From the NCBI GenBank assembly GCA_001790955.1, contig MGDP01000039.1:193-64192 (forward strand): DNA of 64,000 bases, in the 5' to 3' direction. This document shows positions 1,759 through 42,171 of this stretch, piece after piece (position 1 is the first letter of the stretch; each line of letters begins with the position of its first letter). This DNA comes from Candidatus Tectomicrobia bacterium RIFCSPLOWO2_12_FULL_69_37 (GTDB taxonomy: Bacteria > UBA8248). Under the pieces are notes generated by a model. The model had not been told where the DNA came from, did not search any database, and was given only the letters and a program-made list of their open reading frames with translations. The position numbers were made by a program, and so were the translations under genes.

Positions 1759-1853
1759 GGCTCAACCGGGGGGGGAGCAGTTTTACATCCTTGGATAAAA
1801 AGGACTAGAATTTCTGAAATTGGCCGTTGTTGGTCCCCTGTATAGGTCACCTT

Positions 1854-3776: not shown

Positions 3777-3788
3777 GGGGGATCGGCC

Positions 3789-5066: not shown

Positions 5067-5103
5067 GGCCCAGGCGCCCCTGGGCGAGCCAGGAGAGACC
5101 GGA

Positions 5104-10950: not shown

Positions 10951-13900
10951 GACGCACCTCCCTTCGCCTTATAGACGTTGCAGAGGAACGCCTTGTACTC
11001 CGGGATCATGGTGTTGGCGTCCCCCACGTGCGGCGTCAGGACGTTCGCGCTGTCGCCCTTGACGATGCCTTGGTAGCCGAAGTGCCAGATAACGCCGACC
11101 TCGTGGACGATCTTCCCGTTGTGCCGGAAGGGCTCGAAGCGGCGCGTCACCAGGGCGTAGCCGCTCATCTTGCCCCGCGCCGTCTCCAGGGTGACGCGGT
11201 CTCCGTTCTGAACGCCCTTCTGCCGGGCGAGGTCCACTCCCATCTCGACGAAGACATCCGGCACCAGCTCCGCCAGCCAGGGCAGGTTGCGCGTCATCGC
11301 CCCGGCCTGCCAGTGCTCGCTCACGCGGTAGGTCGTCCCCACGATCGGGAAGCGGTCGGCGGTCCCGACGGCGTTCATCTCGGGTGCGTCCTTGTGCCAG
11401 AGCTTGATGGCCGGGTTGACCTGCTGCCGCGACATCATGTTCGGCAGCGGGCTCTCCAAGGGCTCATAGTGCTCGGGCAGAGGCCCGTCGTTGAGGTTGC
11501 CAGCGAAGAGCCACGCGTGGCCGTCCGGCTTCATGATGAAGGGATGCTTCTCCCCCGGCGGCCACGGGCCGTCAGGCACGTCGCCCTCCCACTGTTTTTT
11601 CCCGGCGTTCCAGCGGATGACCCACCGCTTGGGGTTCCAGGGCTTGCCGGTGGGGTCGACCGAGGCGCGGTTGTAGAGGATCCGCCGGTTGACCGGCCAG
11701 CACCACGCCCAATCGGGGTAGAGGCCGATCCCGTTCATGGCGTCCCGTTTGCTCCGCCGGGCCATCTTGTTGTCCTTCTTCTCCGGGCCGGCGTAGCTGT
11801 TGCAGTAGAGCCAGTTGCCAGAGCAGGTGGAGCCGTCGTCCTGCAGCAGGGCGAAGCCGGGAACCTGCTCGCCCTTCTTGTACTGTCTGCCGCCGACGGT
11901 CTTCTCCTGGGTGAAGTAGCCGTTGATTTCCTTCGCCACCCGGTGCACGTCGGGCTCCTTGCGGACGTCGACCTCCTCGCCCGTGCCGTAGTCCCAGGCG
12001 AGGCGGGTGATGGGCTCGGGGAAGACGCCGCCCGCCGCGTACTCCTTCTTCACCGCCTTGCACAGGGCGTCCAGGATCCACAGGTCGGACCGGGAGTTCC
12101 CCACCGGATGGACCGCCGCGTAGCGCCACTGCGCCCAGCGGGCGCTGTTCGTGATGCTCCCTTCTTTCTCCACCGAAGACGCCGACGGTAGGAGGAATAT
12201 CTCGGTCTTGATGTCGGCGGGCTTCACGCCCGGGCGCTTCCAGATCGATGCCGTCTCCGTCTCCCAGAGATCGACGGCCACCATCCAATCGAGCTTCTCC
12301 AGCGCCTTGATCTCCTTGTTCGTGTTCGGCCCGCCGACCGCCGGGTTCTGACCGAAGAGCATGAGACCCTTGATCTGGCCTGCATACATCGCCTCGAACA
12401 GCGATATCCACGAGTAGTCGCCGCTGCGCTTGGGGATGTAGCTGAACGCGAAGTCGTTCTCCCGAGCGGCGTGGCCGCCGTACCAGGCTTTGAGCAGCGA
12501 GACGATGTACTTCGGATAGTTACCCCACCAGTTGGCCGATTTCGGGTCGTTCGTCCTGGGTGTGTTGCTCGCCAGGTAGGCCGCGAGCGATTGGTCGGCG
12601 GCGGTGGGCGAGGCCAGGTAGCCCGGCAGGATGTGGAAGAGCAGGGCCATGTCGGTGGAGCCCTGCACGTTGGACTCGCCCCGGAGGGCGTTCACCCCCC
12701 CGCCCGCCAAGCCGACGTTGCCCAGGAGGAGCTGGAGGATCGCGTAGGTCCGGATGTTCTGGGTCCCGTGCGTGTGCTGGGTCGCCCCCATGGCGTAAAG
12801 CCAGGTGCCCACGCGGTCGGGCGCCCAGGTCGAGGTGTAATGGCGGCAGACCTGGAGATAGACATCCCGCGGCGCGCCGGTGATGTTGCACACCGTGTCC
12901 ACGTCATAGCGCTGAAAATGTTTCTTCAACAGCTGGAACGCGCAGCGGGGGTGTTGGAGGGTCATGTCCCGCACCGGCATGCCTTTCCCATCGAGCTCGT
13001 ACGCCCAGTGGGACTTGTCGTAGCTGCGAGACGCCGGGTTGTAGCCCGTGAACAGGCCGTCATCGAATCCGTACTTTTCAGAGATGATGAACGAGGCATT
13101 CGTGTAGTTGAGGACGTAGTCCTTCTGGACGAAATCGTTCTGGAGAGCATAGTTGATCATCCCGCCCACGAAAGCGATGTCGGTGCCGCTACGGAACTTG
13201 CAGTAGACGTCGGCGAAGGAAGAGGTACGGGTGTAGCGCGGATCCGCACTGACGACGATGGCCCCCTTCTCTTTCGCGCGTGTTATCCATTTCGTGGCGA
13301 TGGGATGGTTCTCCGCCGCGTTCGAGCCCATGATCATGATCACGTCGGCGTGGACCATGTCGCTCCAGTGATTGGTCATCGCGCCCCGCCCGAAGGTCGC
13401 CGCCAAACTGGCGACGGTGGAGCTGTGTCATATCCGCGCCTGGTGCTCCAGGTAGGCGACCCCCAGCGCCCGGGCGAGCTTCGAGTAGAGGTAGCACTCC
13501 TCGTTGTCCAGCGCCGCGCCGCCGAGGCACGCGATGCCCTCGGTTCGGTTCACGGTCCTGCCCCCCTCCTCGCGGCGGAAGGTGGCGTCGCGGGTGCGCT
13601 TGATGCGCTTGGCGATCTCCGGGACGGCCCACTCCCAGGTCTTCTCCTCCCAGCGGCTACCCCCCGGGGCCCGGTAGAGGACGCTCCGCAGGCGCCGCTC
13701 GTTCACCGCCACCTGATAGAGGGCCATGCCCTTGGAGCAGAGCGAGCCTTCGTTGATGGGGTGATCGGGGTCGCCTTCGATGCTGACCACCTTCCCGTCC
13801 CTGGCAGAGACGATGAGCCCGCACCCCACCCCGCAGTACGGGCATATGGTCGTCGACTGCTTGGTGCGAACCGTCTTCATCGGGGGTGTTTGGGCGGCGT

Positions 13901-13994
13901 GGGCCCTCCCTTTTTGAGGGCCGAAAAGAGAGACGGCCGTCCCCAGTGCGCTTCCGCCCGTTGCCCCCAAAAAGGTACGCCGCGAAATCTTCAT
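10947..13994 (-). CDS. fdhA: formate dehydrogenase catalytic subunit (FdnG/FdoG-like, molybdopterin, TAT-exported), in-frame TGA = Sec at 13428..13430
   Basis: TAT signal MKISRRTFLGATGG. Fe-S cluster motif CPYCGVGCG. Track ORFs 13428..13994 and 10947..13406 are in frame, separated by TGA plus 7 codons. Read-through gives '...YLEHQARI-U-HSSTVASLAATFGRGAMTNHWSDM...', almost identical to E. coli FdnG 'NQARVUHGPTVASLAPTFGRGAMTNHW'. Total 1015 aa, the same length as FdnG. Confidence 0.9.
13396..13415 (-). promoter_or_regulatory. candidate SECIS hairpin for fdhA
   Basis: Minus-strand mRNA has stem gucgcc / ggcgac with a GU-containing loop, starting about 12 nt after the UGA. Confidence 0.4.
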
Positions 13995-16998: not shown

Positions 16999-17343
16999 CT
17001 ATTTCTTCGCGGGATGGCACTTCACGCATTCGGTGATTGGGAAGGCCTTCTGCCCGTTGTGACAGGCGCCGCAGTATTTCCCCGCGAGGAGGTCGGCGAC
17101 CATGATTGGCTTCCCCTCGGTGGTCGCGCCCTTCTTCATCTGGAAGATCTGGACATGACAGGCCGTGCACTCCGGGTTTTTCGCCTGGTGCGTCTTATGG
17201 CTGAAGGTGACGGGCGTCTGGTCCTTGGTCTGCGTGTACTTGATGTCCTCGGGAACCGGCATCTGCGAGTAGGCCCACACCGCGCTCAAGGTGACCGCCA
17301 GAACGGCCGCCGCCGCCAAACCCCATCGCGTCCATTTGCCCAT
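16999..17343 (-). CDS. triheme cytochrome c7 (PpcA-like)
   Basis: Signal peptide MGKWTRWGLAAAAVLAV. Three CxxCH motifs (CTACH, CGACH, CVKCH). 'VTFSHKTHQ' is a c7/c3 hallmark. About 114 aa. Confidence 0.7.
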   Translation of the reverse strand: MGKWTRWGLAAAAVLAVTLSAVWAYSQMPVPEDIKYTQTKDQTPVTFSHKTHQAKNPECTACHVQIFQMKKGATTEGKPIMVADLLAGKYCGACHNGQKAFPITECVKCHPAKK

Positions 17344-17486
17344 GTTCAAAGCTCCTTCTCCTTGTTCCCGAGAGACACAACCCCAGACCCTGCAGCCTCG
17401 GCTCTCCTGAGACGAGAGAACTTCGGCGCCATGATACTCAACCCAAGCCCGTCTGCAACCGGGAACGACCGCCAGCGCCAATCGTC

Positions 17487-19037
17487 CTATCGAACTTTCT
17501 TCGCCTCGATATCCGCCTTCGTGCCCAGCCCCAGCGTGTACTCGAAGGAGACGTGGTGGCGGCGGGTGGTTACGTGATCGTCGTGGATAGCGAAGGCGAT
17601 GGGATAGGTCTCCCCGTCCTTCAGGATCACGTCATCCTCGGGATGGCCCGTGTCGAGCTTGCGCTTGAGGATGAGGGTATATTTGCCCATCTTCTCGCCG
17701 GCCTTCCTCAAGAAGACCCCGTAGGCCTGGATGTCGCCCCGGCTCCCGTCCGGCGCCCGGAGGACGCGCTGGTAGAGGATGTCTCCCTCCTTGGGCTTGT
17801 AGACCTTGGGATCATAGGGAACCGCATTCTTGCCCAGGGTCGTGAGGAAGGCGATGGTCTCCTGGTCCTTGATCACCGGCAGGGGGTTCTTCCCGCCCTG
17901 GATGGCATACTCGCCCCCGCCCAGCCGGCCGGAGGGAACCGCCTGGGGATTGAACATGAAGCCCTTGGGGGGGGTCGCGTTCAGGTCCGCGGGCCGCTGC
18001 ATCTGCCAGAGGCCCTTCCCCCTGTCGCCGTTCCGGTAATCGAAGATCCACATGTCGTCGGCGTAGCCGATGTGGCCTGCGCGCGCGGCCCGCCACATCC
18101 ACATGTCGAGGAACTGGCCCTTCTTCCGCATCCCGGCCAGCTCTTCCTTGCCCTTGAGGAGCGACCAGCGCCCCTCGGCCTCGGTCGCGCCCTTCTTCTC
18201 CTTGGGGTCGCCCGCCTGGGCCGCGTTGCGGGTGGCGAGGAGGTACTTCCGGATGTCGCTCTGCTTCGGGAAGACCGATTTCACGCCCTTGTTGTTGAGC
18301 GCGTCGTAGGGCATGTCCCGCATGCTGTTGTGGCAGGTGATGAAGCAGCCGGCCGACTGGAAGCCGGCGGGGGTGCCCGCGTCCGCCGGGACGTGGCCGG
18401 GGGCGCCCTGCTTGTAGCCGAGGAGGAAGGTGAGCCGGTCCTCATAGAGCCCGGGGGACTTATCGGGCTTGAACCCGCCGTAGCCCACCCACTTCTTGCC
18501 GTCGAAGCGCATCGCGTTGTGGTAGGCGCCGGGCTCCTCGCTCTCCCACTGGAGCCAGAAGTACATGTTCTGGGCGTCGTAGGCGGCCTTGACGGCGAGG
18601 TCGACGGTGGGGCGCTTGCCGGGGATCGGCTTGTCCTCGGCGGGCCCCTTGGGGACGAGCTTCTTGCCGAGCGCCTCTTCGTCCGGCCCCGCTCCTCCCG
18701 TCACATGGCAGGTGCGGCAGGCGACGCCCGTCTTGACCACCGGCCCGCCCAGATGCGTAAAGTCCTTCTGGGGGTTCACCAGGCGATCCCAGGAGGCTTG
18801 GCCGGGGTAGAAGAGACGGATGCTCCTCGCCGGGATACCTTCCCATTTCACGGGGACATCCTTAGGCTGAAACGTCGGGATCTCCGGCTTGACCTCACTT
18901 CTCGCGGCCGCCCAGGATGGAGCCGCACCTAGCAGAAGGACCGCCGTACTCACGAGGGCAAGCACGAAAGAGGCCAGGCCCCGACCCAGGCGCTGTTCAG
19001 CAACAGGTCCAGCATCTCGATGAAAAAATGCCATCAT
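17487..19037 (-). CDS. diheme c-type cytochrome fused to an EB_dh/DOMON-like heme-binding domain
   Basis: Signal peptide. CRTCH and CFITCH motifs. C-terminal ~200 aa resemble the ethylbenzene-dehydrogenase gamma-subunit-like (EB_dh) fold. Confidence 0.55.
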   Translation of the reverse strand: MMAFFHRDAGPVAEQRLGRGLASFVLALVSTAVLLLGAAPSWAAARSEVKPEIPTFQPKDVPVKWEGIPARSIRLFYPGQASWDRLVNPQKDFTHLGGPVVKTGVACRTCHVTGGAGPDEEALGKKLVPKGPAEDKPIPGKRPTVDLAVKAAYDAQNMYFWLQWESEEPGAYHNAMRFDGKKWVGYGGFKPDKSPGLYEDRLTFLLGYKQGAPGHVPADAGTPAGFQSAGCFITCHNSMRDMPYDALNNKGVKSVFPKQSDIRKYLLATRNAAQAGDPKEKKGATEAEGRWSLLKGKEELAGMRKKGQFLDMWMWRAARAGHIGYADDMWIFDYRNGDRGKGLWQMQRPADLNATPPKGFMFNPQAVPSGRLGGGEYAIQGGKNPLPVIKDQETIAFLTTLGKNAVPYDPKVYKPKEGDILYQRVLRAPDGSRGDIQAYGVFLRKAGEKMGKYTLILKRKLDTGHPEDDVILKDGETYPIAFAIHDDHVTTRRHHVSFEYTLGLGTKADIEAKKVR

Positions 19038-19096
19038 GTGCTACCTCCTTTTTCTTGGGACGGCCCAAAACCGCCCCCGAGAACCCGGCGGATGCC

Positions 19097-20356
19097 CTAA
19101 ACCCCGCCCGGGGACTTCCTCTCCATCTCCCGGAGCTTCAGGAAAAGAAGCAACGCCAGAACAACGGTCAGCACAATCGGAAGAATGACCCACCTCCTGC
19201 GGGCCTCAAACTCCTTCAGGGCGCCAAGCGCCGTTTGCAGGGCTCCCTGGGCCACTTTATTGCCAATCTGAGCCTCTTTCTCAACCTCCTTCAGCGCGAA
19301 GGAATGGACCTGAGTGCGCACCTTGATGAGCATCGTGCGGGCCTCCTTCATGCTGAACTTGGCCTCCGAGACTTCCATGCCCAGCCGCTCGGCCTTCTCC
19401 AGCTCTTCCGTCGCGCGGTGGATCAGGCTCTTGAGATCCTCGATCTGCTTGCGCATCCCGGCGGCCACCCGCAACTGCGGCGACCCCGCGGCGTGGCAGC
19501 TGACACACACCGCCGGGGACTTGTCGCCGATCATGGCCTCGGATACGCGCACCACCTTGTGGTTCGAGTGGCAGACCACGCACTCGGGAAGCTTCATCCG
19601 CTCGAACGCCGGCTTATGCGGGCTCTTCACGAAGAGATCCCGGTTGTTCACGTGGCACTGCCCGCACATCCCGCTCACCGAACTCACGGCCGGGGGGAAA
19701 GCGCCGTGGTTGCCGTGGCAGTCGTTGCAGGTGGGGGCCGAGAGCTCCCGCTTCTTGATCAAGAGATCGGCATGGACGCTCTGGAGGTAGTTCTCGAGCT
19801 GATTGGTCGGGATCTTGTAATCCTTCATGTATGCCTTGTCCGCGTGGCACTTGGAGCAAGTGCCGGCCACCTTCGGCGCGTAGACGGTGGAATTGGCATG
19901 CGCGGCGGGGAGGATGCCGTGCGCGTTATGGCAGCTCGCGCAAGTCGCGACCTTCACGTCCCCTTTCGCAAGGCGCTGCCCGTGCACGCTCGTCTGGTAG
20001 GCCTTGTGCTGATCGACCGCGATGGACGGGCTGAACCGGCGCATGAAGGCGAGATCCCCGTGGCACTTGTCGCACAGGGCGGGGATCTCGGCCGGCTTGG
20101 GCACGCCGGTGTAGCCCTTCTCCTTGGACATAGAGACTTTGACGTCGAAGGAGGCGGGATCCCCGCCGTGGCAATTCACGCAGGAGAAGCCCTTCTGCGC
20201 ATGGATGTCGGCCTCCAGCATCTTCGCGGGGGCGCCCAGCTTCCCCGGCAGCGCGCGGTGGCACTGAACGCAGGAGTCGGGCTGGGGCGCCGCCGCCCGG
20301 CTCTCCGGAGCCGCGAGGAGAAACACGGCCGCCGCCCCCAGGGCCGAAAACACCAT
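19097..20356 (-). CDS. nonaheme c-type cytochrome with C-terminal membrane anchor
   Basis: Start MVFSALGAAAVFLLAAP (signal peptide). Nine CxxCH motifs (CVQCH, CVNCH, CDKCH, CASCH, CSKCH, CNDCH, CGQCH, CVVCH, CVSCH). C-terminal TM helix. The 901-aa track ORF merges this gene with the antisense of cytochrome b. Confidence 0.75.
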   Translation of the reverse strand: MVFSALGAAAVFLLAAPESRAAAPQPDSCVQCHRALPGKLGAPAKMLEADIHAQKGFSCVNCHGGDPASFDVKVSMSKEKGYTGVPKPAEIPALCDKCHGDLAFMRRFSPSIAVDQHKAYQTSVHGQRLAKGDVKVATCASCHNAHGILPAAHANSTVYAPKVAGTCSKCHADKAYMKDYKIPTNQLENYLQSVHADLLIKKRELSAPTCNDCHGNHGAFPPAVSSVSGMCGQCHVNNRDLFVKSPHKPAFERMKLPECVVCHSNHKVVRVSEAMIGDKSPAVCVSCHAAGSPQLRVAAGMRKQIEDLKSLIHRATEELEKAERLGMEVSEAKFSMKEARTMLIKVRTQVHSFALKEVEKEAQIGNKVAQGALQTALGALKEFEARRRWVILPIVLTVVLALLLFLKLREMERKSPGGV

Positions 20357-20388
20357 CCGCCGCCAAGAATTTCCGCGCACCGCAGACC

Positions 20389-21480
20389 TCAATAAGGTTT
20401 GAAGTAGGCCAGCGATGTCATGGTGGCCAAAAAGACGATCACCGCCACTCCATACGCCGTCACCAGCCAGTGCCGCCTCCCCTCCCTCGACCAGCGGTCC
20501 CAGAAGGGTACCAGGAAGAAGATCAGCCCGCCCGCCCCGATGGCGTACACCCCCAGGGCCTCCCCCTCCATCCCCATGACCTTGGCCGGGATGTACTTGA
20601 GCGACTGGGACATGAACGTGAAGAACCATTCGGGGCGGATCCCCGCCGGGGCGGAGGCGAGCGGATCGGCCTTCTCGCCCACCTCCCAGGGGAGGTACAC
20701 CGAGAGCACGGCGAGCAGGCCGAGGACGACCACCCACACGATGCCTTCCCGCAGGACGAAGTTCGGGATGAAGGGAATTCCCCTCGCTTTCTGCTGGCCG
20801 AGGGGCTGGCTCATCCCCAGGAGCTGAATCAGGAGCAGATGAAGCCCCAGGAAAATCGTGAAGATGGGGGGAAGGATCGCGACATGAAGCGCGAAGAACC
20901 GGGTGAGGGTGGGCCCGCTGATCTCGCTCGCGCCGAGGAGGAAGTTGCGCATCCCCTCGCCCACGACGGGGATGACCTTCGTGACGTCGGTCCCGATCTT
21001 GGTGGCGAAATAGGAAAGCTTCGTCCAGGGGAGGAGATAGCCGGAGAAGCCGAACGTCATGGACAGCACGAGGAGGACGAACCCCGTCACCCAGACCAGC
21101 TCGCGGGGGGGGCGGTAGGCGCGCATGAAGTAGACGCTGAACATGTGGATGAACAGCGCCAGGATCATCAGATTGGCCGACCAGCTGTGGATGGATCGGA
21201 TCAGCCAGCCGAAGGGAACCTTGGCCGAGATGAGGAGCACGCTCTCGTACGCCCCCTCCGGCGCGGGGACGTAGTAGAACATGAGCAGGATTCCCGTCAT
21301 CACCTGCACGCAAAACAGCAACAGGGCGACCCCGCCGAAAAGATAGAAGAAAGTGCCCTTGTGCCAGGGAACCTCTTTGTGGCGGAGGAACTCGACGACG
21401 CCGGAGAGAGGGGCTCGGCTCTCCAGCCAGGAAGCGAGCCGCTCGGACCTGTTCCCGGGGGATTGGGCCATTTGCGTCAA
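20389..21480 (-). CDS. cytochrome b (long bc-complex type, b6 plus subunit IV fused)
   Basis: 363 aa polytopic protein. Conserved cytochrome b signatures (SIHSWSANLMI, heme-ligand histidines, PEWFF). 4-nt overlap with the Rieske gene. Confidence 0.85.
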   Translation of the reverse strand: MTQMAQSPGNRSERLASWLESRAPLSGVVEFLRHKEVPWHKGTFFYLFGGVALLLFCVQVMTGILLMFYYVPAPEGAYESVLLISAKVPFGWLIRSIHSWSANLMILALFIHMFSVYFMRAYRPPRELVWVTGFVLLVLSMTFGFSGYLLPWTKLSYFATKIGTDVTKVIPVVGEGMRNFLLGASEISGPTLTRFFALHVAILPPIFTIFLGLHLLLIQLLGMSQPLGQQKARGIPFIPNFVLREGIVWVVVLGLLAVLSVYLPWEVGEKADPLASAPAGIRPEWFFTFMSQSLKYIPAKVMGMEGEALGVYAIGAGGLIFFLVPFWDRWSREGRRHWLVTAYGVAVIVFLATMTSLAYFKPY

Positions 21481-21929
21481 ACCTTCCGCGCGGAGACGAA
21501 GATTTCCTCGCCGCGGACCGCCACATCATAGGCCGCCAGCGGCGTGGGGGGAGGGCCCGCGATGTTGCGGCCGAACAGATCGAAGTGGCCGTTGTGGCAG
21601 GCGCACCAGATGTGCTCCAGGTCGGCCCGGTATTGGACGGTGCAGGACAGATGGGTGCACGTGGCGCTGAAGGCGCGGTACTCGCCCCCGGGCGTCCGGA
21701 CCAGGATGCCGATCGACCCGCCGAAGCGGAACAGCTTCGCGGTATTGGGCTTGATCTCGGATGTCGAGGCCACCCGGACGGTGTCCACATGCGCGACGGC
21801 AAAGCGCGAAGGGAGAAGAAAGCGGAAAACTGGGTACACCATGGTGCCCAGGAGGGCCAGGATGCCGCCCCCCAGGAAGTAATCCAGGACGCTCCTTCGG
21901 GTCAGCGAGAACCGGCTTTCCGATGCCAT
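21477..21929 (-). CDS. Rieske [2Fe-2S] iron-sulfur protein
   Basis: TAT-like N-terminus (SLTRRSVLD), TM anchor, Rieske boxes CTHLSC and CACHNGHF. Start set at the internal Met (MASESRF...). Confidence 0.8.
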   Translation of the reverse strand: MASESRFSLTRRSVLDYFLGGGILALLGTMVYPVFRFLLPSRFAVAHVDTVRVASTSEIKPNTAKLFRFGGSIGILVRTPGGEYRAFSATCTHLSCTVQYRADLEHIWCACHNGHFDLFGRNIAGPPPTPLAAYDVAVRGEEIFVSARKV

Positions 21930-22590
21930 TCGGAATACCCCCTCCTTCAAGTCTCTCCACGGCAACATTCTATTCTTGGCGCTGCACCACCCCAAGGGAA
22001 AGCGGCCATTCCCGACGCGAGACGGCCCCATCCGGGCGGACGGGACCCCACGAACCTCGCTTTTCCCTCTGCGGCTGCCAGCCAAGCCGGGGAACGGGGG
22101 TCCCCCGAAACGGCAATCACATCACGTGCCTTGCCGATAAAGGCAAGAAGCACACGTCTGAGTTGAGAATTTCAACGGAGGGCCAAGTCGTAATATGAAA
22201 CGGTTCCCAGCCCCTGTCAACGAGAAAACCCCCGCTTGAGGCCAAGATTGCATCCGAAGGAACCACCCAAAAGTTAAGTATTGCTTAACACTCTCAGGTT
22301 GGTGAGAACTTTGACAATTTGGCCACCTTGCGGGCGCAGGGACCGAGAGAATATCGGATGCCGGTCAAAAAACTGTTGCATTGGATATCATAATCCCCTA
22401 TCTTTTATGGCGTGGTGATTATCAACACTTGAAGATTCATCGGCCCTCCCTGAATTTCCGGCAGATCTCCGAAGCGTGTCTTTGAGGCCCCTTTCGTGGG
22501 TTGGGGCCAGAAGTTCTTCTGCGCTCGCGGTCAACGGGCGCGGGAGAATCTGATATCTCATTGCGAAACTCACATCTCTCGGAGAGCTTC

Positions 22591-23595
22591 ATGGGGGCGA
22601 CACAGAAGCACCAGCGAAAGGGAAAGCAGATGGTTTTCCTTGTACTTGCTTTCGTTGCCCTTCTGGCCGCGGGCGGCTGCTCCTCCGGTGACCGAGCCCC
22701 CGCCGCCAAAGCCCCGCCCGCCGCAGCCGCAGCCGCTTCCCGCACGACGGCAACCCAGGCCCGCGCGCAGGCCGCCTCCGCCCAGTATGTGGGTGACAGA
22801 GCCTGCATCGCCTGCCACAAGGACGCCGCCGAGAAATACGCCAAGACCCTCATGGGCAAGACCCTGAGCGGCCCGGCCCGGCCCGGCGTCCAGCGGGTGG
22901 ACTGCGAGTCCTGCCATGGGCCCGCCTCGGCCCACGTCGCCGCCGGCGGCGGGAAAGGGAAGGGGATCCTGGTCACCTTCCGCAGCGGCATCGAGCTGGC
23001 CGCGGTCCAGAACCAGCCGTGCCTCAAGTGCCACGAGAGCGACGAGCGGCGCTACTGGAAGTCGAGCGCCCACGACTCGCGCGACGTCTCCTGCGTCAGC
23101 TGCCACAAGCTGATGGAGAACGTCTCGGACCGCTTCGCCCTCGCCAAGCCCACCCAGAACGACACCTGCGCCCAGTGCCACCTCGTCCGGAAGGCCCAGA
23201 GCTTCCGCAACGCCCACATGGCCGCGCGGGAGGGGGCGACGCAGTGCTCCAACTGCCACGCCCCGCACGGCTCGCCCACCGAGAAGCTCCTGAAGGGCAA
23301 CTCCGTCAACGAGAACTGCTACAACTGCCATCCCGAGAAGCGGGGGCCCTTCATCTTCGAGCACGCCCCCGTGCGCGAGAGCTGCACCAACTGCCACGAG
23401 CCCCACGGCACCCTCAACGACAACCTCCTGAAGATGCGGCGGCCCCGGCTGTGCCAATCGTGCCACGTGGAGGGGCGCCATCCCTCCTCGGCGGGCCTGG
23501 CCAATACGGTCTACACGTTCGGGGCCTCCTGCCTGAACTGCCACAGCCGTGTCCACGGGTCGAATCATCCCTCGGGGAACTTCTTCCTGAGGTAA
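22591..23595 (+). CDS. periplasmic decaheme c-type cytochrome, MtrA/DmsE/PioA family
   Basis: Signal peptide with a possible lipobox (LLAAGGC). Ten CxxCH motifs in about 330 aa. Followed 47 nt downstream by a large beta-barrel gene. Confidence 0.75.
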   Translation: MGATQKHQRKGKQMVFLVLAFVALLAAGGCSSGDRAPAAKAPPAAAAAASRTTATQARAQAASAQYVGDRACIACHKDAAEKYAKTLMGKTLSGPARPGVQRVDCESCHGPASAHVAAGGGKGKGILVTFRSGIELAAVQNQPCLKCHESDERRYWKSSAHDSRDVSCVSCHKLMENVSDRFALAKPTQNDTCAQCHLVRKAQSFRNAHMAAREGATQCSNCHAPHGSPTEKLLKGNSVNENCYNCHPEKRGPFIFEHAPVRESCTNCHEPHGTLNDNLLKMRRPRLCQSCHVEGRHPSSAGLANTVYTFGASCLNCHSRVHGSNHPSGNFFLR

Positions 23596-23642
23596 GGGAC
23601 TTCAGCCGGATTCATTTGGGGACGCCCCAGCCGTAAGGAGAC

Positions 23643-25835
23643 ATGAAGATGATGCCGAGGGCGGCGAGGACACCATTCATGCTTGGGCTGCTCGTGGCGG
23701 CGATTGCCCTGCTCGCCGCACCGGCCGACGCGCAAGAGCTCAAGCTCGGCGACTACACGATCTCGGGTGACTTGGAAGGCGGCGTCCGCCAGCTCTACGG
23801 CGAGCGCCGGGACAGCCGGTTCAACGAGTTCCGGGAAATCCCCCAGGGGCTGTTCTTCCCCGGCCTCCGGCTGGACGTCGGCAAGCCCGGCTACTATTAC
23901 GAGCTCCGGGCCGAGGACCTGCTGGAGAACGATCAGTCCCTCCGCTTCTCGCTGGGGTCGCCGGGCCTCTACCGCCTGGACGTGGAGTGGAACGAGCTCC
24001 AGCACATGTTCAAGAACCAGGCCATCACCCCCTACTCCGGCGTGGGGGGGAGCGACCTCACGATCGACTCCGCCGTCCGGACGGTGATTCAGGGCCAAAG
24101 CAGCTCCGCGCAGATCACCAGCGTGGACAGCCTCTTCCGAAGCGGGCACAGGGAGGTCATCGGTTTCGACCGCGACCGGGCCGAGGTGAAGTTCAGGACC
24201 ATGCTGGCGCCGGACTTCACCGTCAAGACGTATTACAAGAACGAGCGCTGGGACGGCACCCGGCCCATCAATATGCTGTTCGGCAGCAGCCCCGGCGGCC
24301 GCCCGTTCATCGAGCTCCCGATGCCCGTGGACTACCGCCACGACGTGGTCCGTCTCGCTCTCGAGTGGGCCCGGAACGGCAACTCCCTCGAGGTGGGCTA
24401 CGAGGGCTCCTTCTTCGAAAACCGCTACGGCAGCGTGACCTTCAGCAACCCCTTCCGGGGGACGGATGCCTCCAGCACCCCCGCCCGGGGCCGCTTCGCC
24501 CTGGACCCGGACAACCAGGCCCACTACCTCAACGTCCACGGCGCCTTCAACCTGCCGGCCGAGACCCGCCTGATGGGCACCTTCTCCTACGGCTGGCTGA
24601 CCCAGGACGAGACCTTCGTCCCCCACACCATCAACACCGCCCTCACCAGCTCGACCCTCACCCTCCCCCGGAACAGCCTGGACGGGGAGCTCAACCCGAC
24701 CCTCGTCAACCTCGTCCTGACCAACCGGGCGATCCACAACCTCACCATCACGGGCCGCTACCGCTACTACGACCTGGAGAACAACACCAAGCACATCGAG
24801 TTCCCGGGCCACACCGTGGGCGACGTGAGCCAGGTGACCACCTCGACCCTGGAGAACTCCCGCATCGAGTACACCCGCCAGAACGCGGGCGTGGACCTGA
24901 GCTACCGCCTCAGCAACAACCTCAAGCTGAGCGGCGGCTACGAGTGGAGGAAAGCGGACTACCACGAGCTCCACGCCAAGGAGAACCAAGAGGACCGGGC
25001 CAAGGTCAGCCTGGATATCAAGGCCAACAACTGGCTCATGATCCGGCCCGCCTACATCTACTCCGACCGGAGCGTCTCGGGCTACGTGGCCCAGAGCCTC
25101 CCCACGCAGGCGGAGCGGCGGGAGTTCAACCTGGCCGAGCGCGAGCGGCACGAGGGCAAGCTGATGGCCCGGATCATGCCCTCCGACAGGTTCTCCATCA
25201 CCTTCGAGGGCGGCCTCGGGACCGAGGACTACAACGCCAAGTACGGCCTGGACGAGGGCTACGTGTGGAACGCCTCCGTCGAGGTGGCGGTGACCCCCGT
25301 CGACTGGCTCAACATGTTCGCGAGCTACACCCACGAGAGGGTTTTCGGCAAGATCCACTCGGTCCAGAACAGCCGCGTCGGCGGCGTGGATACCTTCTTC
25401 GACGTGGACGCCTGGACGATGAAGTTCACGGACGACTACGACGTCATCCGCGCGGGCTTCGACCTCCTCCTCTACGAGAACAAGGAGAAGGGCCGGAAGG
25501 TCACCGCCCGGGCCGAGATGTCCTACGCCTACAGCAGCGGGGAGACGAGGAACTCCAAGGACGACCCCGCTTCTACCGTTGTTGCCACCGAGAACTGGCC
25601 CGACATCAAGGCCAAGCTGTGGGGGGTGTTCACCCGGGTGGACTACCACCTGAGCAAGCACTTCTCCATCGGCGCGGGCTACAACTACGAGCGCTACACC
25701 CTCGACGACTTCACGCAGCGGTGGGTGGACGTAGTCGTGCCCTCGCAGATCAGCACGCGGGTGTACTCCCTCGGCGACCGGCTGGACAACTACGAGGCCC
25801 ACACCGTGGCCATGTTCGCCCGCTGGCGCTTCTGA
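23643..25835 (+). CDS. MtrB/PioB-family outer-membrane beta-barrel (porin-cytochrome conduit)
   Basis: Signal peptide, 730 aa, alternating amphipathic composition rich in Y/G/N/D, C-terminal aromatic beta-signal '...ARWRF'. Sits immediately after the decaheme cytochrome. Confidence 0.65.
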   Translation: MKMMPRAARTPFMLGLLVAAIALLAAPADAQELKLGDYTISGDLEGGVRQLYGERRDSRFNEFREIPQGLFFPGLRLDVGKPGYYYELRAEDLLENDQSLRFSLGSPGLYRLDVEWNELQHMFKNQAITPYSGVGGSDLTIDSAVRTVIQGQSSSAQITSVDSLFRSGHREVIGFDRDRAEVKFRTMLAPDFTVKTYYKNERWDGTRPINMLFGSSPGGRPFIELPMPVDYRHDVVRLALEWARNGNSLEVGYEGSFFENRYGSVTFSNPFRGTDASSTPARGRFALDPDNQAHYLNVHGAFNLPAETRLMGTFSYGWLTQDETFVPHTINTALTSSTLTLPRNSLDGELNPTLVNLVLTNRAIHNLTITGRYRYYDLENNTKHIEFPGHTVGDVSQVTTSTLENSRIEYTRQNAGVDLSYRLSNNLKLSGGYEWRKADYHELHAKENQEDRAKVSLDIKANNWLMIRPAYIYSDRSVSGYVAQSLPTQAERREFNLAERERHEGKLMARIMPSDRFSITFEGGLGTEDYNAKYGLDEGYVWNASVEVAVTPVDWLNMFASYTHERVFGKIHSVQNSRVGGVDTFFDVDAWTMKFTDDYDVIRAGFDLLLYENKEKGRKVTARAEMSYAYSSGETRNSKDDPASTVVATENWPDIKAKLWGVFTRVDYHLSKHFSIGAGYNYERYTLDDFTQRWVDVVVPSQISTRVYSLGDRLDNYEAHTVAMFARWRF

Positions 25836-36399: not shown

Positions 36400-36560
36400 C
36401 CAAAATTTCCCAATGTGCGTACATGTTTGTCATTTTGCCCCAGGGCATTATCTCAGCAAAGCAATAAACCTTACAACTAATTGTTTTAATTACTGTAATA
36501 CATAATAACTCGCTCGCATATCTGGCATGGGGATTGCTTTCACTCAAGTGACGAAGCTGG
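36400..36560 (+). promoter_or_regulatory. AT-rich intergenic island (probable promoter/regulatory region for the cytochrome-rhodanese operon)
   Basis: About 160 nt with much lower GC than the surroundings (ttgtcattttgccccagggcattatctcagcaaagcaataaaccttacaactaattgttttaattactgtaatacataataactcgc). Lies inside a 400-nt intergenic gap upstream of 36668. Confidence 0.35.
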
Positions 36561-36667
36561 CCCTTCCCGCTCTTTGTGATCCGGCCCTCCCGTTACCGAA
36601 GCTTTTCCACCGTCCTCCGGAGGCCGGTTGGAGGACGCTGACGAAATCGGCCCATAGGAGTTGAGTG

Positions 36668-37948
36668 ATGCAAGGGCCGGTATTCATTCCGCGGGGAGGG
36701 CACCATCCGATGCGGCGAGTGTTCTGGTTCCCCTTAGCAGCCTTCTTGCTGCTTGCCTGGCCCCAGACGGGTCAAGCCGCGGGCCAGTGCGTGGCGTGCC
36801 ATACCGACGCCGCCAAGCTCAAGGCGCTGGTCCAGGCCCCTGCCGAAACCGCCGAAGAGGAAGGATCGAGCTGAGCGGCCCCCATCCCCCGGTCGGGGGA
36901 GCTCTGGGAGCGGTTCCTCGTGAAGAGCGAGTTCGTGCAGTCGACCCACGGGAAGCTCGGCTGCAGCAATTGCCACGGCGGCGACCCCGCCGCGGCGGAT
37001 AAGGAGAAGGCCCACGCCAAGCGGATCTCCCGCCCTTCCGAGGCGATGGAGAAGCAATGCGGCACCTGCCATGCGGAAACCGTGAAGCTCTACAAGACAT
37101 CCCTCCACTTCACGACCCGCGGCTACGATACGGTCATGAAGGCCAAGAGCGGCGCCAAGTGGCCGGAGGTCCACCCGATCGTGCAGCAGGCCTGCCACAC
37201 CTGCCACGCGAGCTGCGGCGACTGCCACGTGCGCTGGCCCAAGCCGGCCGGAGGCGGGCTCCTGAACGGCCACCTCTTCGTGAAAAAGCCTCCCGCCGAA
37301 TCCACCTGCAACGGCTGTCACAGCGGCCGGGTCAGCGCCGACTATTTCGGCTGGAACACGGACCAGCCGGCCGACGTCCATTGGAAGAAGGCCAAGATGG
37401 ATTGCATGGCCTGCCACCAAGTGAAGGACCTCCACGGCGACGGAACGGCCTATCCTTACCGGCTGGACCGCACCACCCAGCCGCGCTGCGTGGATTGCCA
37501 CCCGCAGGCGGCTCCGGGCAAGTCGCCCCTCTTGGCCCACAACGTCCACGGGGACAAGCTGCAGTGCAACGTCTGCCACTCGGTCAAGTACACCAATTGC
37601 TACGGCTGCCATCTGGGAAAAGGGGCAGAGCCCGAGCTGGACTTCCGCATCGGCCTGAACCAGCGGAAGGACCGTCCTTACGCCTACAACCTCGTCCGCC
37701 ACATCCCTACGACGAGGGAGATGCTGAGCGCCAAGGTGCCCGACGCGCTGCCCAACTACGACGACAACCCCACATGGCTGGCGACTTTCCCGCACAACAT
37801 CCAGCGGATCACGCCCCAGAACAAGACGTGCGACGGCTGCCACGGAAACGAAGGTTTGTTCCTCCTGAAAGAGAACCTCGATCCACGCTATCCGAAGGCC
37901 AATCTCAAGGTGGCGGTCCCCCGGGTGCCGCCGAAACTCACGAAATAA
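36668..37948 (+). CDS. putative 11-heme c-type cytochrome with in-frame TGA (candidate selenocysteine at 36872..36874)
   Basis: RBS AGGAG 9 nt before ATG 36668. Signal peptide (RRVFWFPLAAFLLLAWPQTGQAAG), then heme 1 CVACH, then '...AETAEEEGSS-U-AAPIPRSGELWERFLVKSEF...'. The downstream track ORF 36920..37948 is in the same frame, has ten CxxCH motifs and no signal peptide of its own. The hairpin ccccc-GGUC-ggggg begins exactly 11 nt after the TGA. Confidence 0.55.
36875..36908 (+). promoter_or_regulatory. candidate SECIS element (11-nt spacer plus CCCCC-GGUC-GGGGG hairpin with lower stem CCCA/UGGG)
   Basis: The apical loop GGUC is identical to the fdhF SECIS loop. The spacer length matches the E. 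coli rule. Confidence 0.45.
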
Positions 37949-37961
37949 GGAGAAGATAAAG

Positions 37962-38888
37962 ATGAGCAAGACGAGAGGAACGCAAAGAGGATGGATCCTC
38001 GCACTGGCGCTGTTCGCGATCATCGGGTGGGCAGGGCCCGCCGCGGCGGCGGGCTACGCCCGGCCGGAGCTTCTGATCTCGACCGAGGAGCTGGCGAAGC
38101 TCGCGAGCCAGCCGGGGATTAAGATCGTCGATGTCCGAGCCGCGGACGCCTATAAAGCCGGGCACATCCCGGGGGCGCTCTCCATGCCCCGGCCGTCCAC
38201 CCAGTACACGGCGGGGGGCGTCCCGGCGCTCATGGCGCCCGTCGAGAAGATGGAGGAAATCTTCGGCAAGCTCGGAATCAAGCCCACCGACACCCTGGTC
38301 CTCTATGACGAGTCGGCATCTCGGGAAGTGGCCCGCGTGTTCTGGACGGCCGACGTCCTGGGCCATGCCAAGATCCGGGTCCTGAACGGCGGCATGAGCA
38401 AGTGGGCCAAGGAGAAGCGCACCATCAGCAAGGAAGTCCCCCCGGTCACCGCCGCTGCCTACAAGGCCAAGCCGGACAAGAGCAAGGTCGCGGACGCCAA
38501 GTATGTCCAGGCGAGCATGAAAAAGCCCGCAACCGTGCTCCTGGATTCGCGGAGCGCCCGCGAGTGGACCGGCGCGGTGGCCAGTGGTGGCGTGAAGCGC
38601 GCAGGCAAGATCCCCGGGTCGGTGAACGTTGACTCCGATCTGGTGCTCGCTTCCTCGGGCGGGGTCAAGGTTTTCAAGAGCGCCGACGCCCTCGCCAAGC
38701 TTTTCGCGAAGGCCGGCGTGAGCAAGGACAAGGAGATCGTCATCTACTGCCTGACCGGCGTGCGGGCCTCCCACAATTACCTGGCCCTCAAGCTCCTGGG
38801 CTACAACAACCTCAAGAACTACGATGGATCGATGATCGAATGGGGCAACCGGCCGGAGCTGCCCATGGAGAAGTCCGCGAAGAATTAA
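37962..38888 (+). CDS. periplasmic tandem-rhodanese sulfurtransferase (thiosulfate sulfurtransferase-like)
   Basis: RBS AAGGAG. Signal peptide. Two rhodanese domains. Active-site loop 'CLTGVRA' (CxxGxR) in the C-terminal domain. Confidence 0.85.
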   Translation: MSKTRGTQRGWILALALFAIIGWAGPAAAAGYARPELLISTEELAKLASQPGIKIVDVRAADAYKAGHIPGALSMPRPSTQYTAGGVPALMAPVEKMEEIFGKLGIKPTDTLVLYDESASREVARVFWTADVLGHAKIRVLNGGMSKWAKEKRTISKEVPPVTAAAYKAKPDKSKVADAKYVQASMKKPATVLLDSRSAREWTGAVASGGVKRAGKIPGSVNVDSDLVLASSGGVKVFKSADALAKLFAKAGVSKDKEIVIYCLTGVRASHNYLALKLLGYNNLKNYDGSMIEWGNRPELPMEKSAKN

Positions 38889-38902
38889 CGCCTGACGCCC
38901 CA

Positions 38903-38937
38903 GCCGCCGCCGGGGGACCGGCGGCGGCCTTTTTTTC
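38903..38937. terminator. rho-independent terminator (bidirectional position)
   Basis: ccgccgccgg-ggga-ccggcggcgg followed by ccttttttt. Lies between the convergent rhodanese (+) and DUF296 (-) genes. Confidence 0.7.
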
Positions 38938-41613: not shown

Positions 41614-42171
41614 ATGGAAGAAAAACCCTTGAACCCCTTCGAACAAAGCACCGTCGCCGGCGAGCGCATCACCGACAAGCCGGAGCTGCCCCGCCAGGGG
41701 TTCGCCATGCACCTCGTGGCCGACGCCGAGACCATCGAGGGGGAGGCCCACCTCAAGCTGGGGAAGTCCCGGGGCTTCGAGGTCTACTCGGACGAGCCGC
41801 CGCACATCGGCGGGACCAACAAGTTCCCTCCGCCGATGAGCTACCTCGCCATGGGCATCGGCTTCTGACTGCTCACCCAGGTGGCGCGGTACGCGTCCAT
41901 GATGAAGCTGAAGGTCAAAAAGGCCAGCTGCCACGTGGAGTTCGACTACATGCTTTCCGGGTCGGTCCTCAAAGGCACCGTCAAGACCACTTGGAAGGGG
42001 GTTTCCACCCGCCTCGACATCGACTCGGAGGAGCCCGCCGCGAAGATAGCCGCCCTGGTCCGGAACGCCAAGGGGGGCTGCTTCGCGGAGAACTTGGTGG
42101 TCCAGCAGGTCCCGCTCCACGGCGCGGTCTTCCTCAAAGGCCAGCCGGTCGAACCGAACGAGGCACCCTGA
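41614..42171 (+). CDS. OsmC/Ohr-family peroxiredoxin-like selenoprotein (Sec TGA at 41866..41868 replacing the peroxidatic Cys)
   Basis: RBS aggag 8 nt before ATG 41614. Translation '...DEPPHIGGTNKFPPPMSYLAMGIGF-U-LLTQVARYASMMKL...GGCFAENL...'. The in-frame downstream track ORF 41881..42171 is the continuation. The TGA aligns with the conserved 'LAGC' Cys of OsmC. Confidence 0.75.
41881..41898 (+). promoter_or_regulatory. candidate SECIS hairpin for the OsmC-like gene
   Basis: guggcgcg-GUA-cgcguc stem-loop with G/U-rich apical loop, beginning 12-14 nt after the UGA. Confidence 0.35.

Follow-up and report, generated by a model that had tools for sequence, protein, structure and literature searches.

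Gene Structure around the In-Frame TGA

Is the TGA at positions 36872–36874 of the Tectomicrobia DNA analyzed here (a stretch of 64 kb, hereafter the window) the end of a small cytochrome gene, or is it read as selenocysteine (Sec) within a much larger one? The ORF that it closes, 36668..36874, encodes a signal peptide and a single heme motif, CVACH, and ends after 31 mature residues. The next ORF, 36920..37948, shares the same frame and carries ten CxxCH motifs (aa 99–392 of the joined protein), and not one in-frame ATG, GTG or TTG lies between the TGA and the GTG at 36920. An initial annotation, made from the DNA letters, had read these features as a single gene with a Sec codon in it. Our comparisons make it very probable that 36668..37948, in one frame across the TGA, indeed encodes a single Sec-containing protein, a predicted 426-aa c-type cytochrome with 11 hemes and Sec at residue 69 (Sec69). 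All coordinates given here refer to features on the forward strand.

A Shine-Dalgarno sequence, AGGAG (36656..36660), stands 7 nt 5' of the ATG at 36668; the ATG at 36710 is a possible alternative start. The Sec-type signal peptide (aa 1–37/38, 36668..36781) has the hydrophobic core FWFPLAAFLLLAW followed by GQA|AG, its end reading ...WPQTGQA|AGQ. Next come the heme 1 motif CVACH (aa 41–45, 36788..36802), which is conserved in orthologues, an acidic linker that is probably flexible, the Gly-rich loop with the predicted Sec69 (36872..36874), heme 2 and a nine-heme core, the ten CxxCH motifs of hemes 2–11 occupying 36962..37843. The 11 CxxCH motifs show 100% conservation among 77 read-through orthologues. 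Together with the signal peptide and matches to the Pfam families Cytochrome_C7 and Cytochrom_c3_2, they give the protein the attributes of a c-type multiheme cytochrome.

The UGA Codon in Relatives

Searches for relatives returned at least 595 matches in species-representative genomes carrying at least eight phylum-level labels (the family also corresponds to 235 clusters at 50% identity, E ≤ 1e-30), and the codon was examined in the 80 best. It proved to be TGA in 78 of these 80 best loci (of at least 595 matches), and never TAA or TAG. The checks proposed in the initial annotation that were run all spoke for a single gene. Among the observations that it had named as speaking against one were orthologues ending at this point and an overlooked export signal on the downstream ORF, and we encountered neither. 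The only stop-type codon at the site was TGA, and coding conservation runs on past it, with the motif G-x-G-U-[GA]-[GA]...P...W-E-K straddling the codon. The downstream ORF has no export signal; in orthologues the signal peptide or lipobox, together with heme 1, always lies 5' of the Sec codon, in the upstream piece.

Homologues with Cys in place of Sec, which the initial annotation had proposed to look for, are present at the exact linker position: P0069 (...EEEGGGCAVAPGR), P0083 (...SGGCAVAPGR) and many more. Full-length Cys homologues comprise P0069, P0083, P0099, P0061, P0110 and more than 10 other representatives of the 50%-identity clusters, and at one Cys-type locus an uninterrupted ORF precedes a rhodanese gene.

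In some members of the family the Sec position is taken by Trp, His or Tyr, or has no counterpart. We considered whether the Trp might be a gene-calling artefact (genetic code 4) and rejected this explanation, the codons being genuinely TGG. Judging by sequence, the Sec position is not universally required in the family.

The SECIS Hairpin

The hairpin CCCCC-GGUC-GGGGG (36886..36899) begins 11 nt past the TGA, just as first described, and is assigned as the upper hairpin of a bacterial SECIS element from its fold, its conserved helix and compensatory changes; the predicted extended stem covers approximately 36873–36917. In bacterial SECIS elements the distance from the UGA to the apical loop is 16–37 nt (PMC10778597). 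The window hairpin, with a G in its GGUC loop and 16 nt between UGA and loop, conforms to this description.

In a single-sequence test the fold was not better than that of shuffled sequences (z = −1.0, at 67% G+C), and the significance of the hairpin accordingly derives from the comparative data. In orthologues, hairpins located 11–12 nt after the UGA had 89% of their cells paired, against 40–53% in slid controls. Covariation amounted to 53 double-change cells, a count reached by none of 500 shuffles; compensatory swaps of G-C to C-G in the stem turn the peptide VAPLEPW into VPPLEAW. The 28 nt past the UGA gave a mean folding energy of −11.5 kcal/mol, versus −4.5 elsewhere in the same genes. 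The SECIS-like hairpin is thus conserved at a fixed offset, with covariation. Rfam returned zero RNA families, both for the whole window at the gathering threshold and in a permissive scan of 36840–36960; curated models of bacterial SECIS elements are not expected in that database, so that the negative result carries little weight.

Selenocysteine Decoding in the Organism

The window holds four other UGA-Sec genes, encoding GrdA, GrdB, FdnG and an OsmC-like protein, in line with the initial annotation. When read through the UGA, all four score above NCBIfam cut-offs (GrdA, NF040748; GrdB family, TIGR01918; FdnG, TIGR01553; OsmC-like, NF041052), implying that the genome decodes Sec. Hairpins are found at the same 11–12 nt spacing at the UGA sites of the GrdB, OsmC-like and FdnG genes. 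No selA, selB, selC or selD was found within the 64-kb window, where the large ORFs were examined and there is no tRNA-Sec gene.

The Rhodanese Gene and the Operon

The gene that follows, beginning 13 nt past the cytochrome stop and with GGAG 8 nt 5' of its ATG, encodes an exported rhodanese of 308 aa (37962..38888). It had been described as a periplasmic tandem rhodanese with an active-site motif, and we could confirm each element of the description: a signal peptide, two PF00581 domains (matched in two stretches, E 2.7e-37) and the active-site loop CLTGVR (aa 263–268, with Cys263; 38748..38765) in the C-terminal domain. The intrinsic terminator attributed to the operon is also there (38903..38936), formed by a stem-loop at 38903–38928 with 11 G-C pairs and the loop GGGA, followed by T7.

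On the 5' side, an AT-rich island (36420..36520), read from the sequence, is possibly a binding region for an activator or IHF. It is followed by a sigma-54-type −24/−12 promoter-like element, TGGCATGGGGATTGCT (36523..36538), assigned solely from its match to the consensus; this is the sole match to TGGCAY-N5-TTGCW in the 64-kb window, against 0.04 expected by chance. The cytochrome and rhodanese genes would be co-transcribed, probably from this sigma-54-type promoter, and the transcript would end at the strong terminator. The genes on either side of the operon, which have no relation to it, encode a quinone oxidoreductase and MmgE/PrpD, PCC-domain, metallo-beta-lactamase and amidohydrolase proteins, and no quinol dehydrogenase gene is adjacent to the cytochrome in the window.

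The association of the two genes is conserved. In 66 of the 80 best loci (of at least 595 matches) the cytochrome gene has a rhodanese gene as its same-strand neighbor, and in P0101 and P0171 the cytochrome and the rhodanese are fused. These neighbors were counted with additional rhodanese queries and a Pfam scan, which were needed because tblastn with the window rhodanese alone gave 19 loci. At some loci, NrfC-like 4Fe-4S and membrane proteins are encoded beside the cytochrome in place of the rhodanese.

Fold, Heme Ligands and the Position of Sec69

The core of the protein, from heme 3 onward, shows a distant relationship to octaheme tetrathionate reductase (OTR). A PDB sequence search with the single protein gave marginal cytochrome c7 matches only. 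In the alignment with OTR (PDB 1sp3), which shares the fold of the multiheme core, OTR heme 1 corresponds to heme 3 here and the active-site heme 2 of OTR to heme 4. OTR differs in having 8 hemes instead of 11 and in lacking the N-terminal two-heme extension that bears the Sec. The cytochrome does not belong to the OTR family proper, as TIGR04315 gave no match at E ≤ 0.01. In the alignment, there is no conserved Lys or Cys opposite OTR residues 56 and 64, which we take to be the Lys heme ligand and the active-site Cys. OTR is a sulfur-oxyanion redox enzyme, and a 2026 review lists a Sec-containing subgroup of its family.

Sec69 lies in the N-terminal two-heme extension, within the Gly-rich loop G-x-G-U-G-G. 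In an AlphaFold2 model of the Cys homologue P0069, in which no hemes were placed, the Sec/Cys loop has a pLDDT below 50; as modeled, the loop is probably mobile.

The inventory of conserved heme ligands leaves room for another role of Sec69, namely that it serves mainly as an axial ligand of one heme (His/selenolate, a selenium counterpart of the His/Cys ligation in TsdA, SoxAX, DsrJ and heme 2 of MccSep), tuning its potential or forming an active site, and not as a nucleophile swinging freely. For the 11 hemes, ten distal His residues outside the motifs are conserved (H94, 116, 147, 202, 238, 256, 291, 294, 345 and 376), and the N-terminal piece offers no conserved His as sixth ligand for heme 1. 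No Cys outside the CxxCH motifs is conserved in the family, so that besides Sec/Cys the only other conserved potential ligand is M244 (94% conserved). The His and Tyr variants found at the site could both ligate a heme. However, M244 could itself be the missing ligand, several members with Trp (true TGG) or no residue at the position retain all 11 heme motifs, and the loop is rich in Gly and of low predicted confidence; we regard the axial role as unlikely.

Similarly unlikely, in our judgment, is a variant in which Sec69, on its flexible arm, would reach the single heme without conserved distal His, either as a selenolate ligand or through a Se-S/Se-Se intermediate held over the heme. Such ligation would have parallels in the His/Cys hemes of TsdA, SoxAX and DsrJ, where a chalcogen side chain lies at or near a c-type heme in sulfur chemistry; here the Sec ligation is putative, and those proteins, with their one to three hemes, show no sequence relationship to the present one. 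Selenolate ligation, if true, would give the first natural His/Sec-ligated heme. In either version of this reading, the family would consist of respiratory reductases of sulfur or selenium that depend on selenium and had gone unrecognized, with a wide distribution in Anaerolineae and further uncultured anaerobes.

Comparison with MccSep and ExtM

A precedent for a Sec69 cytochrome working with a rhodanese is MccSep, a Sec-dependent multiheme polysulfide/selenite reductase whose cluster also encodes the rhodanese ExtH (PMC13510729, PMC5877670). MccSep/ExtKL of Geobacter sulfurreducens (GSU2937-2936; PMC13510729) is likewise a periplasmic multiheme c-type cytochrome with one UGA-Sec and a SECIS directly downstream. 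Its gene, too, was historically split into two ORFs, its Sec lies in a Gly/Pro loop (D-G-U-P, versus G-x-G-U-G-G here), Cys-type homologues exist and the rhodanese ExtH belongs to the cluster.

Despite these similarities, we found no sequence relationship, either with NF040886 (no match at E ≤ 0.01) or in the PDB sequence search. MccSep has 5 hemes, against 11 here; its Sec is in a C-terminal Ig-like domain rather than an N-terminal extension; and it has a conserved heme-ligating partner, Cys239, whereas here no Cys is conserved outside the CxxCH motifs. MccSep ranges over Desulfobacterota and Nitrospirota, while the present family is found mainly in Anaerolineae, plus Desulfobacterota, Tectomicrobia, Rokubacteria and others. 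On these grounds (NF040886, heme number, N-terminal Sec, no extra conserved Cys) we rejected membership in the MccSep/ExtKL family.

The top NCBIfam match of the cytochrome is ExtM (NF040943), at 49.6 bits against a cut-off of 800 and over residues 88–153 only, a score far too low for membership; ExtM, from the Geobacter extHIJKLMNOPQS cluster (PMC5877670), has 12 hemes and lacks the Sec segment. The second NCBIfam match of the rhodanese is ExtH (69.3 versus a 200-bit cut-off). Together, these two matches indicate that multiheme cytochromes are repeatedly paired with exported rhodaneses.

Possible Function

Taken as a whole, the data are best explained by one Sec69 cytochrome gene in an operon with a rhodanese gene, presumably with a role in chalcogen redox chemistry, a reading that we consider likely. 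We infer that the cytochrome acts outside the cytoplasm as a redox enzyme of sulfur or selenium, in concert with the rhodanese. The idea of a periplasmic sulfur/selenium redox module, put forward in the initial annotation, is plausible and is strengthened by the conservation of the rhodanese linkage. To the specific claim that cytochrome and rhodanese are functionally coupled in sulfur or selenium chemistry we would give an even chance; that the enzyme works in the reductase direction, with Sec as nucleophile, is a tentative and somewhat doubtful proposal.

Translation would start at ATG 36668, or possibly at 36710, and UGA-69 would be decoded as Sec through SelB bound to the hairpin that begins 11 nt downstream. 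The chain would be carried to the periplasm by its signal peptide, yielding a product of about 42 kDa with 11 covalently bound hemes. Cys263 of the rhodanese may then bind, as a persulfide, a sulfane sulfur (or selenium) atom drawn from polysulfide, thiosulfate or selenite and hand it to the Sec69 selenolate, forming a Se-S (or Se-Se) adduct that electrons from the heme chain would reductively cleave, releasing sulfide or selenide. The oxidative, reverse direction may be possible as well. A periplasmic rhodanese-type carrier is known in Wolinella succinogenes, where Sud feeds sulfane sulfur to polysulfide reductase; that reductase, PsrABC, is a molybdoenzyme, not a cytochrome, and contains no Sec.

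A different role, compatible with the members in which Trp, His or Tyr replaces Sec or the residue is missing, would be that of a conduit for electrons, a heme wire in the periplasm or at the cell surface, in which Sec is accessory and the rhodanese linkage reflects co-regulation only. The loci where NrfC-like 4Fe-4S and membrane proteins replace the rhodanese fit this picture, and the window also encodes an MtrA/MtrB-type conduit. The picture is quite improbable, though: a costly UGA-plus-SECIS arrangement kept in 78 of the 80 best loci from representative genomes points to strong selection on Sec, the rhodanese gene adjoins in 66 of the 80 and is sometimes fused, and the proteins related by fold, OTR and hydroxylamine oxidoreductase, act as catalysts.

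The TGA as an Ordinary Stop or an Error

Gene callers and the public databases treat the TGA as a genuine stop and split the gene, as OGL60428.1 here and as WP_061913057.1 plus WP_061913058.1 in Bellilinea, where the cultured strain B. caldifistulae GOMI-1 has the two pieces as BECAL_00333 and BECAL_00334, with products of 83 and 367 aa. Read in this manner, the locus would hold two genes, for a 68-aa monoheme cytochrome and for a decaheme protein starting at GTG 36920. The downstream ORF had been said to lack a ribosome-binding site; strictly, this is not so, since GGGAG stands 9 nt 5' of that GTG, but the GGGAG falls within conserved codons (W-E-R). The downstream piece, whose hemes must be attached in the periplasm, lacks an export signal. 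Moreover, none of the 78 loci has TAA or TAG, the Cys-type homologues are single ORFs and the hairpin is conserved. Conservation extends to the residues encoded from the TGA to the called start, where close relatives differ mostly by synonymous changes. Two separate genes are thus very improbable, and the single read-through gene is by far the better description.

An error in sequencing or assembly, a pseudogene, or decoding as Trp by a near-cognate tRNA, for which the TGG variants of some relatives might speak, is extremely improbable: the 60-nt stretch containing the TGA has the same sequence in four separate public records of the organism, which rules out a one-off assembly error, TGA recurs in 78 other genomes, the rest of the gene is undecayed with its 11 heme motifs intact, the SECIS has been conserved, there are Cys homologues, and TGA is, besides, used more often than any other ordinary stop codon in the window.

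Novelty and Significance

The initial annotation had not recognized a described selenoprotein family in this gene, and as far as we have checked this assessment holds. No NCBIfam model matches the cytochrome at its cut-off. A review table of May 2026 lists as cytochrome selenoproteins only ExtKL, the GSU2204 family and the Otr octaheme family, the Sec69 family being absent, and our literature searches found no report of it. A large selenoprotein family, with at least 595 matches in species-representative genomes, thus appears to have been missed and to be systematically mis-annotated: its members are deposited as a small "hypothetical protein" and a leaderless "multiheme cytochrome," including those of the cultured Bellilinea caldifistulae (RefSeq).

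If confirmed, the family would represent a second lineage of multiheme cytochrome selenoenzymes, evolutionarily independent of MccSep, suggesting that extracytoplasmic sulfur/selenium chemistry has repeatedly been solved by combining Sec, heme and rhodanese. The existence of a cultured host, B. caldifistulae, makes the prediction directly testable. For the Anaerolineae, a group abundant in sediments and anaerobic digesters, it would mean an unrecognized dependence on selenium and, possibly, sulfur respiration.

Gene Layout and Conservation of the In-Frame UGA

The gene at 36668..37948 (+) most likely encodes an exported 11-heme protein, with Sec69 predicted to be inserted by SECIS-directed recoding of the UGA and with an exported rhodanese predicted to be co-transcribed. 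An AGGAG Shine-Dalgarno sequence (+) stands at 7-nt spacing from the ATG at 36668. The upstream ORF (36668..36874, +) encodes a signal peptide (…FWFPLAAFLLLAWPQTGQA, followed by AGQ) and one CVACH motif, ending at the TGA (36872-36874) after 31 mature residues; the downstream ORF (GTG 36920..37948, +) has ten CxxCH motifs in the same frame and is without an export signal. No in-frame ATG, GTG or TTG lies between the TGA and 36920 in the window sequence. The initial annotation had described the split frame, the heme counts and the missing start and export signal correctly, but its statement that the downstream ORF has no RBS was too strong, because GGGAG sits 9 nt 5′ of GTG 36920.

As also described there, a tandem, exported rhodanese gene (37962..38888, +; active-site loop CLTGVR; PF00581 in two stretches, E 2.7e-37) starts 13 nt past the cytochrome stop, and a terminator (38903-38936, +; an 11-bp, all-G-C hairpin and then T7) closes the operon. 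The window's sole match to the sigma-54-type −24/−12 consensus, against 0.04 expected, is at 36523-36538 (+; TGGCATGGGGATTGCT), at the 3′ edge of an AT-rich island ~130 nt 5′ of the cytochrome start. Beside the window operon we saw no gene for an enhancer-binding protein; some Thermodesulfobacteriota loci have NtrC-type regulator genes as neighbours.

The TGA had been flagged as a possible base-calling error, and four public records share an identical 60-nt stretch that includes it: GCA_001790935.1 at NCBI, two assemblies at ENA and a metagenome at JGI. A protein search gave 706 relatives, nearly all of ~340-368 aa and spanning only 80% of the query, the part after the TGA. Cys stands at exactly the Sec position in a few relatives of full length (e.g., P0069, …EEEGGGCAVAPGR, and P0083, …SGGCAVAPGR), the Cys-for-Sec orthologues that the initial annotation had proposed seeking in this linker.

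A scan of species-representative genomes returned at least 595 matching stretches, the best 80 of which were examined. The aligned codon was TGA in 78 of these 80 and never TAA or TAG; the other two had a sense codon, for neither Cys nor Sec. In the best loci examined, the stretch 5′ of the TGA always encoded a hydrophobic signal sequence and, after it, a CxxCH motif (with a lipobox additionally in 54/77), and conserved peptide continued unbroken on the 3′ side, with the family motif G-[EV]-G-U-[GA]-[GA]-x-x-x-P-x-E-x-W-E-K-V. Orthologues ending here in an ordinary stop, an outcome for which the initial annotation had allowed, were thus not what we found. All 11 CxxCH motifs were 100% conserved among 77 reconstructed read-through proteins. 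Judging from sequence comparison, the TGA is neither an error nor an ordinary stop. In one locus (L062, contig CAVVZR010000006.1, 5′ of 5977) the frame leading to the TGA is without a heme 1 motif, perhaps owing to a frameshift or faulty assembly of that MAG. An exhaustive profile search gave 235 representatives at E ≤ 1e-30 and 734 at E ≤ 1e-10.

Hairpin and Sec Decoding

The bSECIS-like hairpin CCCCC-GGTC-GGGGG noted initially is indeed present (36886-36899, +), beginning 11 nt past the TGA, and its UGA-to-apical-loop distance of 16 nt lies within the 16-37 nt quoted for bacterial SECIS elements (PMC10778597). Taken alone, in this 67% G+C DNA, the window hairpin was no better than shuffled sequence (z = −1.0). 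In an ungapped alignment of 78 sites the helix keeps a constant offset from the UGA. Over its 8 bp, 89.3% of cells are paired, versus 40-53% with the partner columns slid, and both-side changes occur in 53 cells, a count reached by 0/500 shuffles. The chief compensatory change, G-C to C-G (41 versus 32 sequences), alters the peptide VAPLEPW to VPPLEAW, so that pairing is preserved at the cost of two amino-acid substitutions. Other clades, that of the window among them, differ in peptide (PIPRSGE, PPPPAGE), yet at this position they too form a G+C-rich hairpin, with a loop of 3-5 nt that has G as first base. The 28 nt from 8 nt past the UGA fold with a mean of −11.5 kcal/mol, versus −4.5 for windows elsewhere in these genes, and rank among the best 5% of windows in 67/79 loci.

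When window genes were read through in-frame UGA and scored against curated NCBIfam cut-offs, four exceeded them, bearing out the initial view that other UGA-Sec genes are present: GrdA (3312-3776, +; Sec TGA 3435-3437; NF040748, 198 bits versus 130), GrdB-family selenoprotein B (~5101-6432, +; 6163-6165; TIGR01918, 420 versus 65), the formate dehydrogenase-N alpha subunit FdnG (10947-13994, −; 13428-13430; TIGR01553, 1311 versus 814) and an OsmC-like (seleno)protein (~41614-42171, +; 41866-41868; NF041052, 154 versus 95). As an internal control, the Sec-site hairpins of GrdB, OsmC-like and FdnG begin 11-12 nt past the UGA, with the loops GGC, GUA and one containing GUU, respectively. The organism, from its predicted genes, is one that decodes Sec; no Sec machinery genes lie within the 64-kb window.

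The GrdA gene is flanked by grdC-beta (1818-3266, NF040746) and a GrdE-like ORF (3777-5066). The GrdB-family gene has the motif PAT-U-GTGTRSG and a hairpin, GCGUAGC-GGC-GCUACGC, from 11 nt past the UGA; FdnG shows the canonical HQARI-U-HSS and a Tat-type leader. The OsmC-like gene (GIGF-U-LLT) follows the cytochrome-rhodanese operon by only ~3 kb.

Taken together, the TGA in 78/80 loci, the Cys homologues, the covarying hairpin and the other Sec genes support the initial reading of one gene with Sec, and we are close to certain that a single Sec-containing cytochrome is encoded.

Neighbours and Variants

Of the best 80 loci (of at least 595), 66 have a rhodanese gene on the same strand within 2.6 kb, downstream in 51 and upstream in 15, and one Cys-type locus has the same layout. 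The rhodanese has four domains (~575 aa) in Anaerolineae and a single domain (~150 aa) in Thermodesulfobacteriota; in the Bellilinea caldifistulae GOMI-1 locus (L074, NZ_LGHJ01000006.1, TGA at 6088) a four-domain gene follows the cytochrome by 28 nt. Cytochrome and rhodanese are fused in P0101 and P0171, and such fusions are probably why, by name transfer, JGI/IMG labels many cytochromes (P0005, P0007, P0009 and others; P0272-P0282) "thiosulfate/3-mercaptopyruvate sulfurtransferase". A LysR-type regulator gene is often a neighbour. In a minority of loci, an NrfC-like 4Fe-4S protein and a membrane protein replace the rhodanese downstream; this is so in a subclade (L086, L088, L023, L060) in which the site reads CC or CW and the cytochrome is extended at its C-terminus and has a transmembrane helix, with a LysR regulator gene upstream (in L086 also ccmE/F/H).

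Elsewhere in the window, 17002-25835 is a porin-cytochrome conduit cluster, with an ORF with 3 CxxCH (17002-17631), a long ORF with 9 CxxCH (19100-21901, -), an MtrA-like decaheme lipoprotein (22486-23595, 10 CxxCH) and an MtrB/PioB-family outer-membrane protein (23637-25835; TIGR03509, 344 bits).

Representatives of 50%-identity clusters have C, CC, W, H, Y or nothing at the Sec position. The Trp codons are genuine TGG in L087 (aa 106 of P0062) and L088 (P0087), and L087 retains a SECIS-like hairpin (GUGCCUCC-GAU-GGAGGC) despite the TGG, which suggests a recent UGA-to-UGG change. The variants without Sec look like products of lost Sec decoding; the Sec site is apparently dispensable in some members, and its variants argue against Sec as an obligatory structural heme ligand. 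Two Anaerolineae loci (L029, L031) keep heme 1 and the remaining protein with neither Sec nor Cys at the site; no rhodanese gene occurs within their fetched flanks, two cases that amount to anecdote.

Relation to Known Cytochromes and Possible Function

Pfam matches of the window cytochrome were to generic multiheme domains only. NCBIfam matches were all sub-threshold: the best for the cytochrome was ExtM (49.6 bits versus a cut-off of 800), and the second for the rhodanese was ExtH, both from the Geobacter selenite/tellurite ext cluster, in which the selenoprotein ExtKL is encoded as well. When the Cys homologue P0069 was modelled with AlphaFold2 (mean pLDDT 80, pTM 0.74), Foldseek gave no match to the model in the PDB; the best match of the family profile was octaheme tetrathionate reductase (OTR, 1sp3; E 3.2e-6). 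By that alignment, heme 1 of OTR is the counterpart of heme 3 here and its active-site heme 2 that of heme 4, so that an N-terminal extension, made up of heme 1, the acidic linker, the Sec loop and heme 2, would precede an OTR-like core. There are ten conserved non-motif His for 11 hemes, Met244 is 94% conserved, and Cys is nowhere conserved in the family except in the heme motifs. In the P0069 model the Gly-rich Sec/Cys loop has pLDDT < 50.

A May 2026 review lists as cytochrome selenoproteins ExtKL/MccSep (NF040886), the GSU2204 family (NF041027) and an Otr octaheme subgroup (TIGR04315); the window cytochrome matched none of these at E ≤ 0.01, and a full-text literature search found no published description of an 11-heme Sec cytochrome. 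We therefore rate this a new selenoprotein family, in agreement with the initial annotation, within a known kind, the multiheme cytochrome selenoenzymes, and not something categorically new. MccSep, a five-heme polysulfide- and selenite-reducing selenoenzyme of Geobacter, uses its Sec to attack the substrate beside a His/Cys-ligated heme (PMC13510729). It differs in heme number, Sec position and taxonomic range, and its partner Cys is lacking here; it is a precedent for the Sec-plus-heme chalcogen chemistry that we propose.

A sulfur or selenium redox mechanism shared with the rhodanese seems to us an evenly balanced proposition. On its mobile loop, the Sec69 selenolate would receive sulfane sulfur (or selenium) from the rhodanese Cys263 persulfide. 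Electrons supplied through the heme chain would then cleave the Se-S adduct reductively, or the reaction might go in the opposite direction.

In GenBank the window gene appears as OGL60428.1, a 342-aa "hypothetical protein" of Candidatus Tectomicrobia, and in RefSeq the orthologue of Bellilinea caldifistulae stands as two proteins, WP_061913057.1 (83 aa, hypothetical) and WP_061913058.1 (367 aa, "multiheme c-type cytochrome"). This large and mis-annotated family is open to experiment, Bellilinea caldifistulae being a cultured organism with an orthologue, and it surfaces at a time when a multiheme selenoenzyme has just been characterized for the first time.
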